Source: a virus (Duplodnaviria > Heunggongvirae > Uroviricota > Caudoviricetes). Taken from it: DNA of 28,214 nt. This document shows, piece by piece, positions 1,191 through 3,434 of the stretch; position 1 is the first letter of the stretch; each line of letters opens with the position of its first letter. Below the pieces are notes generated by a model. The model was not told where the DNA came from and did no database searches. It worked only from the letters and a program-made list of their open reading frames with translations. The position numbers were made by a program, and so were the translations under genes. Location of the stretch: IMG/VR virus record IMGVR_UViG_2657244961_000001. One strand, written 5' to 3'.

Positions 1191-1742
1191 ATGAGTCGCA
1201 CATCCCTGATTAAATTAATCCATGTCGCCCGTCGGGAGCTACAACTCGACGATGACACTTACCGCGCTTTTCTGATGCAGAACACGGGCAAAATCAGTTG
1301 CCGCGAGCTGACGGTTACGCAACTGGAACAGGTGCTCGATGCCATGAAAGAACGCGGCTTTAAAAAGCTGAATAAACATCCACGTCGCCGCTTTAAGGAA
1401 CATGTCACGCCCCGCGAGAAGGTGTATAAAATTTGGCAGCAGATGGCAGAAGACGGTTTTATTACCGATGGCGGTGATGTGGCGCTGGATAAATATGTTC
1501 AGCGCCTGACCGCGAAACGCAACGGCGGACAGGGTGTTTCCACACTGGCGTGGTGTCACGGAGAATCGTTGCAGGTTGTGCTTGAAACCCTGAAACAGTG
1601 GCACATCCGCTGTATTCGTGAAGCCTTTTCCCGTCACGGGCTTCCGTTGCCGGTCAGTCCGTCCGGGCGTGAACTGCGCGGCTATGATGCCATGACGGCG
1701 GCTTATGCCCATGCCAGAAAGACACGGAGGATGGCACAATGA
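1191..1742 (+). CDS. gemA: GemA-like protein (Mu gp16 family)
   Basis: 183 aa, ATG preceded by GGAGG; size and position immediately upstream of mor match Mu GemA as I recall it. Confidence 0.75.
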   Translation: MSRTSLIKLIHVARRELQLDDDTYRAFLMQNTGKISCRELTVTQLEQVLDAMKERGFKKLNKHPRRRFKEHVTPREKVYKIWQQMAEDGFITDGGDVALDKYVQRLTAKRNGGQGVSTLAWCHGESLQVVLETLKQWHIRCIREAFSRHGLPLPVSPSGRELRGYDAMTAAYAHARKTRRMAQ

Positions 1743-2128
1743 CGGAAGATTTATTTGGTGATTTGCAGGATGACACCATCCTGGCACATCTTGACAATCC
1801 CGCCGAGGATACGTCACGCTTTCCGGCACTGCTGGCGGAGCTGAACGATTTACTACGCGGGGAATTGTCCCGGCTGGGTGTTGATCCGGCCCATTCACTG
1901 GAGATTGTTGTGGCTATCTGTAAGCATCTGGGCGGCGGTCAGGTCTACATTCCACGCGGTCAGGTTCTGGACTCGCTGATTCGGGATTTGCGTATCTGGA
2001 ATGATTTTAACGGTCGCAACGTCAGCGAACTGACCACCCGTTATGGTGTCACTTTCAATACGGTTTACAAGGCCATTCGCCGGATGCGACGGCTGAAATA
2101 CCGCCAGTACCAGCCCTCACTTCTGTAA
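1739..2128 (+). CDS. mor: Mor-like transcription activator (Mor/C family)
   Basis: 129 aa, start overlaps gemA stop (ATGA); sequence MTEDLFGDLQDD... recognised as Mor-like; followed by a terminator hairpin. Confidence 0.75.
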   Translation: MTEDLFGDLQDDTILAHLDNPAEDTSRFPALLAELNDLLRGELSRLGVDPAHSLEIVVAICKHLGGGQVYIPRGQVLDSLIRDLRIWNDFNGRNVSELTTRYGVTFNTVYKAIRRMRRLKYRQYQPSLL

Positions 2129-2133
2129 ACAGT

Positions 2134-2158
2134 AAAGCCGGTTAATCCGGCTTTTTTT
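2134..2158 (+). terminator. rho-independent terminator after mor (AGCCGG stem, 5-nt loop, T7 tract)
   Basis: aaAGCCGGttaatCCGGCTttttttt read directly from the sequence. Confidence 0.55.
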
Positions 2159-2205
2159 ACGTCCTCAATATCCTGTGATGAATAACCGTACCGGGGGAAA
2201 TCATC
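2159..2205 (+). promoter_or_regulatory. candidate Mor-dependent middle promoter region (position inferred, no motif verified)
   Basis: Only non-coding stretch between the mor terminator and the first middle-operon ORF; distance from here to the hairpin after C is about 1.2 kb. Confidence 0.2.
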
Positions 2206-2424
2206 ATGGGTAAAGGCTGGAATGCATCCTTTCATCTTGGCAGACGTGAGCGGCTGCGTCAGGAGGTTTTGCACCGTGTCGCCGGTGGGCCACGGCCTGC
2301 GCCCCGCGACTATACCGGTCATGATGGCACCCACGGCAGTTATTACATGAAAGGCTGGCGGTCAGTTGATATGCCGGAAATTCTTCATCATTGCCTGCTT
2401 TACAGGGAGAAACATTATGTCTGA
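2206..2424 (+). CDS. hypothetical small basic protein (72 aa), first ORF between mor and C
   Basis: ATG preceded by GGGGGA; stop overlaps the start of the next ORF (ATGTCTGA), suggesting coupling. Confidence 0.3.
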   Translation: MGKGWNASFHLGRRERLRQEVLHRVAGGPRPAPRDYTGHDGTHGSYYMKGWRSVDMPEILHHCLLYREKHYV

Positions 2425-2779
2425 GCGTTCTGCTCATCAGTGGCCTGATTTTTTATCGGTGGTGTTACTGGCGCTGTTATTGTGGATAAGTCTGTTTTGT
2501 GGCTGGCGCGCGCTGATGTTTTGCTGTGCCTCGGTTTTCAGTGTTGCTTTATGTGTTGCCGGTGATTGTCTGGATGCGCTGATAATGAGCTGCCGGGTGC
2601 CTGAACATTTTGCCCGGTTCGTCTGGCCTCTGACCTGGCTGGGGAGTCTGTCCGGGCTGGGATTAGCCGTGATGGCAACGTCTCAACTGAAAACGGGTCC
2701 TGAGCATGTCATCTGGGCGCTGGCCGGATTGCTGACGTTCTGGCTCTCCTTTCGTTTTCGTGCTCGTCTGTTCGGGTAA
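2417..2779 (+). CDS. small polytopic inner-membrane protein (about 120 aa, about 4 predicted TM helices), function unknown
   Basis: ATG at 2417 preceded by AGGGAGAAA; hydrophobic stretches FLSVVLLALLLWISLF, LMFCCASVFSVALCVAG, FVWPLTWLGSLSGLGLAVMA, VIWALAGLLTFWLSF. Confidence 0.45.
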   Translation: MSERSAHQWPDFLSVVLLALLLWISLFCGWRALMFCCASVFSVALCVAGDCLDALIMSCRVPEHFARFVWPLTWLGSLSGLGLAVMATSQLKTGPEHVIWALAGLLTFWLSFRFRARLFG

Positions 2780-2788
2780 AGGGGCACC

Positions 2789-2908
2789 ATGTACAGAAAA
2801 TTCAGTGATGAATGTTTCGGGCCGTCCACGCTGATTAGTGCGATAAAAGTGATTGCCCTTGTGGTTCTGATAACCATCAGTGCCGTGGTGTATCTTTCTG
2901 TCTGTTAA
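2789..2908 (+). CDS. 39-aa single-TM peptide (not in the supplied ORF track)
   Basis: ATG 2789 preceded by AAAGGGG; translation MYRKFSDECFGPSTLISAIKVIALVVLITISAVVYLSVC, stop TAA 2906-2908. Confidence 0.3.
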   Translation: MYRKFSDECFGPSTLISAIKVIALVVLITISAVVYLSVC

Positions 2909-2920
2909 CCGGGGGAAAAT

Positions 2921-3343
2921 ATGCAGCATGATTTATTTGAACACGATCCGGCAATTCGCCAGTTAATCGGACACATTGATAACATCCCGGCCCCGGAACT
3001 GGAATCACGCTGGCCCCGTTCGGTGGTTGATCTGATTGATGTTCTGGAAAACGAACTGAAACGCCAGAACGTCAGCAATCCCCGTGAGCTTGCCCGTAAA
3101 CAGGCCGTTGCCCTGTCCTGTTTTCTGGGCGGGCGGCAGTTTTACATCCCCTGCGGCGATACGATCCTGACCGCGTTACGCGACGATTTGCTTTACTGCC
3201 AGTTCAATGGTCGTAACATGGAAGAACTGCGTCGCCAGTATCGCCTGTCCCAGCCGCAGATCTACCAGATTATTGCCCGCCAGAGAAAGCTGCATACACG
3301 ACGTCATCAGCCTGATCTGTTCTCACCTGAAAGCCAGAAATAA
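2921..3343 (+). CDS. C: C-like late transcription activator (Mor/C family)
   Basis: 140 aa; ATG preceded by GGGGGAAAAT; shares the C-terminal FNGRN...Y..I motif region with the Mor-like protein; sits directly upstream of the endolysin. Confidence 0.75.
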   Translation: MQHDLFEHDPAIRQLIGHIDNIPAPELESRWPRSVVDLIDVLENELKRQNVSNPRELARKQAVALSCFLGGRQFYIPCGDTILTALRDDLLYCQFNGRNMEELRRQYRLSQPQIYQIIARQRKLHTRRHQPDLFSPESQK

Positions 3344-3366
3344 CCGGCATCCTGCCGGTTATTTCC
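3342..3366 (+). terminator. hairpin overlapping the C stop codon (8-bp perfect stem AACCGGCA/TGCCGGTT, 3-nt loop), possible middle-transcript terminator
   Basis: Perfect inverted repeat at 3342-3360 followed by ATTTCC; the U tract is weak. Confidence 0.3.
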
Positions 3367-3377
3367 TGTCACCATAA

Positions 3378-3387
3378 TCCCGCACCT
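3378..3387 (+). promoter_or_regulatory. TCCCGCACCT motif, candidate late-promoter element upstream of lys
   Basis: Identical 10-mer recurs at 11229-11238 upstream of the I-like gene, at a similar distance from the start codon. Confidence 0.3.
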
Positions 3388-3434
3388 GCCATCTGATTTT
3401 TTAGACTGCCATCAGCGCATTTTTTCAGGGAAGC

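Follow-up and report, generated by a model that had tools for sequence, protein, structure and literature searches.

Genes 18, 19 and 20 in the middle operon of a Mu-type prophage of avian pathogenic Escherichia coli and their counterparts in Mu-like phages

The sequence of the middle operon of bacteriophage Mu dates from the early 1990s, and later re-annotation has covered the transmembrane (TM) topology of its products, the promoter and the terminators. The curated Mu record holds gp18, gp19 and gp20 along with Pm, the promoter that depends on Mor, and the two terminators. Mor, annotated in Mu as middle operon regulator, is the activator of the middle promoter and is encoded by the final gene of the early transcript; the late-gene activator C is encoded by the final gene of the middle transcript, for which Stoddard and Howe reportedly described a length of 1.2 kb in 1990. 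Small membrane or soluble proteins encoded beside an endolysin gene are also found among holins and antiholins (lambda S105/S107, phage 21 S68/S71), and the P2 genes lysA, lysB and lysC are analogous small lysis-regulator genes next to the endolysin gene. In Mu, cells in which gp19, gp20 or both were induced remained fully viable even after treatment with DNP, and the two proteins were neither lethal nor holin-like (PMC9239132). For the observation that inactivation of genes 19 and 20 did not significantly affect lysis, that study refers to Mathee and Howe (1993).

The DNA analysed here, referred to as the window, comprises 28,214 nt of a Mu/D108-type prophage. Positions 2100-3400 are 100% identical to a prophage of E. 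coli APEC E19057, and nucleotide identity with Mu, D108 and Mu_3F6 is 98.6-98.8%. This region almost certainly belongs to a phage Mu-type prophage and covers the part of its middle operon nearest the promoter. Operon structure, gene identities and the outcome of toxicity and lysis tests are already known for Mu, and in this respect our description restates that of the Mu middle operon. Genes 18, 19 and 20 are real yet dispensable Mu genes and, as they have also long been annotated, their finding is ordinary. New here are the purifying selection on all three open reading frames (ORFs), the gene 19 cassette and the position of gp18 homologues behind the endolysin outside Muvirus. Taken as a whole, we somewhat favour an account in which the region represents the Mu middle operon, genes 19 and 20 are dispensable for lysis with non-toxic products, and genes 18-20 would represent the remnant of a lysis cassette with an accessory role.

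Regulatory layout of the middle operon

The control elements and the flanking regulator genes are located as follows:

1739..2128, + strand: mor (gene 17); Pfam Mor, E 4e-33; 98.6% nucleotide identity to Mu
2131..2146, no strand: Mor-binding dyad of Pm (-51 to -36), AGTAA-AGCCGG-TTAAT; published positions mapped with +1 = 2182
2134..2160, + strand: intrinsic terminator of the early transcript; terminator scan and fold; terminator annotated in Mu and D108
2169..2182, + strand: probable Pm -10 hexamer TATCCT (2169-2174) and start +1 at 2182; published base identities for +1
2921..3343, + strand: C (gene 21); Pfam Mor, E 9e-34; called C in Mu, D108 and SfMu
3338..3364, + strand: hairpin ending the middle transcript, 12-bp stem; fold; terminator annotated in Mu and D108

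The order of mor, terminator and Pm, three small ORFs, C and a second terminator, as read by the first-pass annotation, agrees with the curated Mu annotation, and every feature that it listed was found where it had been placed. The middle operons of Mu and D108 (GenBank AF083977 and GQ357916) have the same gene order, sizes, overlaps, promoter and terminators. Different from these laboratory phages, the window is a chromosomal prophage of avian pathogenic E. coli with few substitutions: gp18 differs by one residue from both, gp19 by two residues from Mu and one from D108, and gp20 by one residue from Mu and none from D108. The small ORFs are bracketed by two genes of the Mor family, with mor directly upstream and C as the last cistron.

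The positions of Pm were rebuilt from later open-access papers, which place the Mor dyad at -51 to -36 (PMC4287176, PMC4390567), and were then transferred to the window. With +1 at 2182, eight out of eight published base identities were matched, and this was the only one of 21 offsets tried to do so. The Pm region of the window is that of Mu, with the Mor dyad, a -10 hexamer, a matching +1 and no -35 hexamer; we infer that TATCCT is the probable -10 hexamer. The promoter annotated in Mu corresponds to positions 2121-2191. The sequence of the Mor dyad is the same as in Mu and invariant in seven relatives, and a 36-bp core including the hairpin is also invariant in relatives with a mor dS of about 1.1.

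The early terminator consists of an 8-bp stem (2134-2141 and 2147-2154) with a 5-nt loop, followed by a T run, and has a folding energy of -12.2 kcal/mol (z = -3.3), with only one of 200 shuffled sequences being as stable. It is embedded in Pm, the right arm of the stem occupying -35 to -28 and the T run lying in the spacer. Within this element, the perfect dyad AAGCCGG-N5-CCGGCTT was present at 2135-2153 as initially noted, where it had been suggested to act both as terminator and as binding site for an activator. An overlap of hairpin and Mor site was confirmed, but the G+C-rich repeat AAGCCGG/CCGGCTT itself is not the Mor dyad. As the latter maps to 2131-2146, its half-sites are A/T-rich pentamers, one on either side of the hairpin's left arm, and the symmetry centres of the two dyads are 5.5 bp apart.

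The hairpin behind C has a folding energy of -15.5 kcal/mol (z = -6.6); it was not reported by a simple terminator scan because its T run is weak. A distance of 1,183 nt between +1 and this hairpin fits the earlier suggestion of a single middle transcript of about 1.2 kb. In the corresponding sequence of events, early transcription would stop at the hairpin at 2134-2160, and Mor produced from the early transcript would bind the dyad overlapping this hairpin and bring RNA polymerase to Pm. The transcript of about 1.18 kb starting at 2182 would encode gp18, gp19, gp20 and then C, and would end at the hairpin at 3338-3364.

Three small genes between mor and C

The three genes between the two regulators are the following:

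2206..2424, + strand: gene 18 (E18), 72-aa basic soluble protein, predicted three-helix fold, PF26867 Phage_Mu_gp18; homology
2417..2779, + strand: gene 19 (E19), 120-aa inner-membrane protein with four TM segments; homology and hydropathy
2789..2908, + strand: gene 20, 39-aa single-TM peptide; homology and hydropathy

Each of the three ORF starts is preceded at 5-9 nt by a purine-rich ribosome-binding site, and all three ORFs are under purifying selection and, thus, not chance reading frames. Searches of gp18, gp19 and gp20 against Pfam, NCBIfam and PADLOC gave no significant matches, and among the PHROGs only families of unknown function were matched. With respect to the PADLOC defence models, gp18 and gp20 had no match and gp19 matched a generic 2TM model at just E 0.057. 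A literature search for Mup18, Mup19 and Mup20 returned only papers on mouse urinary proteins. None of the three proteins has a predicted biochemical activity.

The product of gene 18 is basic, in line with the first-pass annotation, with a pI of 9.8, and has no hydrophobic segment. It is 98.6% identical to Mu gp18 and matches phrog_2121 (E 1e-35). Homologues were found in 112 clusters of 51-101 aa, all with a precomputed match to PF26867; the direct Pfam search, for which a Pfam set without this model was used, gave no match to gp18. The protein is conserved across Enterobacterales, Vibrio and Shewanella, and its dN/dS is 0.05 against the divergent relative L007. The AF2 model of gp18 has a pLDDT of 88. 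The RDRL and GW motifs of the protein recall RMF by eye, and with a first, low-confidence model the RMF of Vibrio (2jrm) was the second Foldseek match, which together raised the idea of a small basic RMF/CrpP-like protein acting on ribosomes. However, this Foldseek match had an E value of only 7.4, the hhalign probability of gp18 against RMF was 0.6%, and the gp18 profile had no match to PDB sequences at E up to 10. We rejected this assignment for lack of similarity in profile and fold, and give it virtually no credence. A fusion of gp18 to a holin was also considered, as the phrog_2121 profile covers both proteins, but did not occur in any of the 112 gp18 clusters.

Gene 19 overlaps gene 18 by 8 nt at 2417-2424, and the overlap ATGTCTGA noted in the first pass was found there; the start-stop overlap is also conserved in relatives. 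Hydropathy supports the predicted four-helix membrane protein, with two strong hydrophobic segments (about residues 10-29 and 31-57) followed by two weaker ones (about 66-86 and 96-113), and the Mu annotation of gp19 likewise gives four TM segments with both termini inside. The protein is 98-99% identical to gp19 of Mu and D108 and matches phrog_4975 over residues 1-120 (E 4e-72). Gene 19 evolves faster than its neighbours, with a dN/dS of 0.24-0.27 (0.24 against L007). It behaves as a precise 372-bp presence/absence cassette, which is absent from SfMu, vB_YpM_3, _5, _6, _23, Tongde and PhiR68_1 as well as from as many as roughly half of the E. coli prophages matched. In SfMu, vB_YpM_3/23/Tongde and PhiR68_1, all Muvirus, mor, Pm, gene 18, gene 20 and C are shared at 98-99% identity; unlike in the window, gene 20 of these phages begins at the start point of Mu gene 19, and gp18 carries a C-terminal extension of four residues. 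The distribution of gp19 is very narrow: when 1.84 billion representatives were searched exhaustively, the only matches were Mu-type copies and fragments, one further relative of 123 aa with 37-41% identity depending on the alignment, and two weak matches to long proteins of more than 700 aa.

The product of gene 20 is indeed a peptide with a single TM segment (hydropathy, at about residues 11-39). It is 100% identical to D108 gp20 and 97% identical to Mu gp20, matches phrog_19823 over its full length (E 8e-30), and is encoded in all 14 Muvirus records. The dN/dS of gene 20 is 0.3-0.4 (0.39 against L007). We also considered gp20 as the truncated remnant of an about 200-aa, GTA_holin_3TM-like membrane protein and rejected this at an hhalign probability of 0.1%.

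Gene order in Mu-like phages

In the close Mu relatives YpM_5/6 and L007/L008, a GH108 muramidase gene lies directly upstream of gene 18 within the middle operon. Outside Muvirus, the gp18 homologue directly followed the endolysin in every sampled context with upstream sequence. The contexts sampled were from Klebsiella and Klebsiella-type metagenome contigs, Enterobacter-type contigs, E. coli, Serratia, Yersinia, Shewanella, Vibrio and Aliivibrio. The order here was endolysin (GH108+PG_binding_3 or DUF5675), gp18, membrane proteins (one or two), a zinc finger of the TraR type at the position of Mu gp24, DUF2730 at the position of the Mu releasin gp25, and gp27.

The lysis cassettes of these phages, e.g., of the Klebsiella Kp4866-3, Shewanella MuM16-2/MuSo and Vibrio martha 12B12 types, thus share with Mu the PF26867 gp18 homologue and, downstream, the TraR-type and DUF2730 genes as equivalents of gp24 and gp25. 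In Enterobacterales, a gene for a four-TM protein overlaps the gp18 stop as in Mu. Unlike in Mu, the endolysin gene (GH108 or DUF5675) directly precedes gp18, a membrane protein of about 180-203 aa is present, and there is no second Mor-family gene in the regions examined and no gp20, SAR endolysin or spanins. For the neighbour of about 200 aa, the best match to GTA_holin_3TM had E 0.0025, which is below threshold. In the Mu lineage, gene 20 is now separated from gene 24 by C, as the second Mor-family gene, a SAR endolysin and spanins. In the window, genes 19 and 20 are set apart from the endolysin gene by C and a terminator; in the relatives, the equivalent genes adjoin an endolysin gene.

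Possible roles of gp18, gp19 and gp20

The first-pass annotation had considered lysis factors, superinfection-exclusion proteins and membrane-acting toxins. With respect to gp19 and gp20, which are 98-100% identical to the induced Mu proteins, neither a lysis factor nor a toxin agrees with the viability of those cells (PMC9239132). The proposal by Samanta et al. (2021) that gp19 and gp20 form the missing holin-antiholin pair of Mu that times lysis draws on their being small membrane proteins encoded close to the lysis genes, and in relatives the equivalent position does sit between the endolysin and a holin-like protein. However, unlike lambda S105 and phage 21 S68, gp19 and gp20 were not lethal after depolarisation by DNP (PMC9239132), they are encoded by middle and not late genes, their inactivation had no significant effect on lysis according to the citation of Mathee and Howe (1993) in that study, and SfMu, several Yersinia Mu-like phages and PhiR68_1 do without gene 19. 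This reading is largely refuted by published work and we consider it highly improbable. In addition, no similarity in sequence or fold of the three proteins to any known lysis regulator was found.

Two further explanations are independent of lysis. The membrane proteins, particularly gp19, could be moron-type cargo directed against superinfecting phages or host defence during lytic growth. This would fit the exact 372-bp cassette, the extremely narrow distribution and the faster evolution of gene 19 as well as its dispensability (PMC9239132), but the PADLOC defence models gave no match, expression is from the Mor-dependent lytic promoter and not in the prophage state, and the overlapping pair of gp18 and a four-TM gene occupies the same position also in distant Mu-like prophages, a pattern that speaks more for an integrated module than for random cargo. 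We regard cargo as unlikely. Still less probable is that the ORFs are a translated spacer that shields the leader of about 740 nt from Rho-dependent polarity and sets the delay and level of C synthesis, with products that are nearly functionless. The cistrons are tightly packed or overlapping, and C is the sole essential product of the operon as far as the title and citation of Mathee and Howe (1993) convey; against this, the dN/dS of 0.05 and the wide conservation of gp18 show that the protein itself is selected, and phages without gene 19 or with an additional GH108 gene tolerate differences of 370-560 nt in leader length.

Based on gene order, Mu genes 18-20 may instead be what remains of the upstream part of the lysis cassette ancestral to Mu-like phages, a reading we hold tentatively. 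The same evidence makes an accessory, envelope-directed role of gp18-20 most likely. Soluble gp18 together with its co-translated membrane partners gp19 and gp20 would then tune membrane or lysis events. In Mu, with lysis carried out by gp22, gp25 and gp23/23.1, such a role would be redundant. As genes 19 and 20 have shown no significant lysis phenotype or toxicity in Mu, any role must be subtle or conditional. A more far-reaching version, which appears rather doubtful, is that gp18 (PF26867) and the membrane protein translated next are a conserved lysis-control component of Mu-like phages, needed for export or timing of cytoplasmic GH108 or DUF5675 endolysins in phages without a canonical holin; the copy in the Mu middle operon would be vestigial because insertion of C, the SAR endolysin and the spanins split the ancestral cassette. 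Gene order suggests that a phenotype is to be expected not so much in Mu itself as in those Mu-like phages that have an endolysin devoid of a secretion signal, which bears on the question of the 2022 paper on Mu lysis, namely how holin-less Mu-like phages release endolysins that are not of the SAR type. For a putative homology of gp19 with the four-TM proteins that occupy its position in Klebsiella-type prophages, hhalign gave a probability of 9-18%, and a CFxGWxAF-like motif is common to both.

Genes 18, 19 and 20 of the middle operon

The region carrying genes 18-20 is a known operon of phage Mu that had already been annotated, and which the first-pass annotation re-described; its interpretation was mostly right. 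Window 1739-3400 was 98.6-98.8% identical to phages Mu, D108 and Mu_3F6, window 2100-3400 was 100% identical to a prophage of E. coli O78:H4 APEC E19057, and gp18, gp19 and gp20 each differed from their Mu and D108 counterparts by 0-2 residues. The curated Mu record AF083977 lists the same order, namely Mor, the Mor-activated middle promoter (Pm) with a predicted terminator inside, Mu_18 (E18), Mu_19 (E19; N-in C-in with four TM domains according to Phobius and TMHMM), Mu_20 (one TM domain) and C, then a terminator, Plys and the SAR endolysin. The D108 annotation is alike for the middle operon, and E18 and E19 were already included in the 1991 left-end record M64097.

Open reading frames between mor and C
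2206-2424, plus strand: gene 18, 72 aa, basic (pI 9.8), no hydrophobic segment
2417-2779, plus strand: gene 19, 120 aa, two strong and two weak hydrophobic segments
2789-2908, plus strand: gene 20, 39 aa, single TM segment

ORFs of 72, about 120 and 39 aa, with genes 18 and 19 overlapping by ATGTCTGA (2417-2424), were all confirmed where they had first been placed, and the claim of two membrane proteins among the three agrees with the Mu annotation (four hydrophobic segments in gp19, one TM segment in gp20). Judged by their sequences, all three are real genes. Each is preceded by a purine-rich ribosome-binding site, and against L007, the locus of a divergent relative, genes 18, 19 and 20 gave dN/dS values of 0.05, 0.24 and 0.39, respectively, compared to 0.06-0.10 for mor and C; against L019, gene 19 gave 0.27, with synonymous and non-synonymous changes numbering 20 each. 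Distant relatives keep the overlap of the gene 18 stop with the start of the membrane-protein gene that follows. Gene 20 was found in 14 of 14 Muvirus records, and L007 has a recognizable homologue of it at 38% identity. In the source prophage, this 39-codon gene is missing from the RefSeq/PGAP annotation (NZ_CP126934.1, between 1869563 and 1869705).

The proteins belong to PHROG families 2121 (gp18), 4975 (gp19) and 19823 (gp20), in all of which function is unassigned. Homologues of the 72-aa protein carry the Pfam family PF26867 (Phage_Mu_gp18); a Pfam search of the window proteins returned nothing for it because this model is newer than the copy searched.

When 1.84 billion representatives were scanned exhaustively with HMMER, gp19 matched Mu-type copies and fragments, a 123-aa relative (P0021; 37-41% identical, depending on the alignment) and, weakly, two long proteins (>700 aa), and on this basis is almost an orphan. 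The gene behaves as a presence/absence cassette of 372 bp (window 2417-2788) with ATGT at either side: the gene 20 start of SfMu and YpM_5 is at the exact position of the gene 19 start in Mu, and the match to the window is split into two pieces in SfMu, vB_YpM_3, vB_YpM_23, Tongde and PhiR68_1. The 3' end of gene 18 in SfMu and YpM_5 is locally far more diverged than its flanks. At least 80% of the region was covered in 20 of the 41 complete E. coli genomes carrying it. Loss of gene 19 from the lineages without a copy is more probable than insertion into Mu, since the divergent relatives L007/L008 have the full 18-19-20 trio, in the order Mor, GH108+PG_binding_3 muramidase, gp18, gp19' (P0021), a 41-aa gp20' and C.

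The middle promoter and its terminator

A terminator scan detected the early terminator hairpin, with an 8-bp stem (2134-2141/2147-2154), a 5-nt loop and a T run (-12.2 kcal/mol, z = -3.3). At Pm, the Howe laboratory mapped a Mor footprint spanning -56 to -36 and, within it, the 16-bp Mor dyad (-51 to -36), in which a G/C-rich hexanucleotide lies between two 5-bp inverted repeats; G at -57, A at -54 and permanganate-reactive bottom-strand T at -12, -4, -1, +1, +3 and +4 were also published (PMC4287176, PMC4390567). Matching these eight base identities over 21 candidate offsets left 2182 as the sole +1 position with 8/8 identities. The Mor dyad is thereby placed at 2131-2146 (AGTAA-AGCCGG-TTAAT) and a probable -10 hexamer, TATCCT, at 2169-2174; the hairpin's right arm then covers -35 to -28, and the T run falls within the promoter spacer. 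A G+C dyad at 2135-2153 had been proposed to act as both early terminator and activator-binding site. The hairpin and the Mor dyad overlap, and the dual-use idea is therefore right as a physical overlap; however, the Mor element has a symmetry of its own, distinct from that of the G+C stem, and the two centres lie 5.5 bp apart.

A 36-bp core (2126-2161, TAAACAG...TTTTTTTACG) holds most of the Mor footprint, the entire hairpin and the T run, and is unchanged across seven phages, including L007 and YpM_5, for which dS of mor against the window was 1.1 and 0.44, respectively. Such constraint is unusually strong for a non-coding element, here one that doubles as terminator and promoter. A second hairpin lies 3' of C (3338-3364; -15.5 kcal/mol, z = -6.6). 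From +1 to its end the distance is 1,183 nt, a geometry that fits the suggested middle transcript of about 1.2 kb; Stoddard and Howe reportedly gave 1.2 kb for the C-operon transcript in 1990.

Gene order around gp18 and a putative lysis-associated role

A profile search recovered gp18 homologues in 112 clusters (51-101 aa) from Enterobacterales, Vibrio, Aliivibrio and Shewanella. Contexts outside Muvirus were sampled from Klebsiella, Klebsiella-type metagenome contigs, Enterobacter-type contigs, E. coli, Serratia, Yersinia enterocolitica, Shewanella, Vibrio and Aliivibrio, and all that had upstream sequence displayed one gene order.

Gene order in non-Muvirus gp18 contexts
1: Mor
2: variable protein, 107-176 aa, signal-peptide-like N terminus in most of those translated
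3: endolysin, GH108+PG_binding_3 or DUF5675
4: gp18
5: four-TM protein, 117-136 aa, Enterobacterales only
6: membrane protein, about 180-203 aa
7: TraR-type zinc finger
8-10: DUF2730, gp26-like gene, gp27

The distal genes correspond to gp24/gp25 (releasin)/gp26/gp27 of Mu. In 7 of 10 members, the membrane protein of about 200 aa matched GTA_holin_3TM, though below threshold (best E 0.0025), and the flanks examined in these prophages contained a single Mor-family gene. A 186-aa GH108+PG_binding_3 muramidase also lies between Pm and gene 18 in YpM_5 (L004 1273-1833) and L007 (3237-3797). YpM_5/6 and L007/L008 have retained this gene ahead of gene 18, whereas Mu, D108 and the window are without it; close Mu relatives that have it thus encode, besides the gp22-type lysozyme after C, a different muramidase in the middle operon.

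A direct lytic function was proposed for the membrane proteins, gp19 and gp20 being regarded as a holin-antiholin pair by Samanta et al. (2021), as cited in PMC9239132, and the first-pass annotation likewise considered a membrane toxin or lysis factor. The expression test it called for had already been published with a negative outcome: DNP-treated cells remained fully viable after arabinose induction of Mu gp19, gp20 or both, while lambda S105 and the S68 protein of phage 21 proved lethal, and one construct with all Mu holin candidates was non-lethal too (Chamblee et al., 2022; PMC9239132). The authors concluded that Mu has no holin, and genes 19 and 20 are reported, as relayed in PMC9239132, to be dispensable for lysis. 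For gp18, a by-eye resemblance to RMF failed all profile and structure comparisons. Its AF2 model is three-helical (pLDDT 88), suggesting a soluble, basic three-helix protein; structure searches returned generic helical matches only, and neither an enzymatic nor a binding activity can be assigned to it.

Most likely, gp18 acts together with the product(s) of the membrane-protein gene(s) immediately after it, in an accessory function connected with the envelope or with lysis; in Mu this function would be redundant. In the simplest reading, the ancestral lysis cassette, driven by a Mor-dependent promoter, would have consisted of an endolysin gene, gp18 and one or more membrane-protein genes. On the branch leading to Mu, the gene for the approximately 200-aa protein would have given way to C, a duplicated Mor-family gene, and its terminator, together with Plys, the SAR endolysin and the spanins; the GH108 muramidase before gene 18 would have been lost in Mu, D108 and the window prophage; and genes 18, 19 and 20, left behind on the upstream side, would have become the promoter-proximal segment of what is now the middle operon. 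Control of Pm transcription by Mor, and the close packing or overlap of the cistrons, are shown here or published. The strict adjacency of endolysin and gp18 over Mu-like phages provides a lead for future work.

In the non-Muvirus Mu-like prophages, the slot between mor and the endolysin is highly variable (107-176 aa; L009 1339-1824, L016 1288-1818, L022 1116-1565, L023 1285-1743), and its four translated proteins all have signal-peptide-like N termini, with no Pfam match for the two checked and no PHROG match for the one checked; it looks like a cargo (moron) slot. The phrog_2121 profile (284 positions) matched gp18 at positions 3-73 (window 2206-2421) and the approximately 200-aa membrane protein at 89-272 (L009 3107-3715). 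This points either to a member in which the two are fused or joined by read-through, or to an artefact of clustering; none of the 112 gp18 clusters contained such a fusion.

An antisense gene near gemA

On the minus strand, an 88-aa ORF (855-1121) has a strong ribosome-binding site and a full-length phrog_8747 match (E 1e-60). It would be unusual for a gene to lie antisense to the early transcript just ahead of gemA. At the equivalent position the curated Mu record has a 55-aa plus-strand gene, Mu_54, and a PHROG search with the plus-strand ORF 919-1086 of the window gave no match. The minus-strand ORF is called as a gene in SfMu (SfMu_16), L007, L014 and L019.
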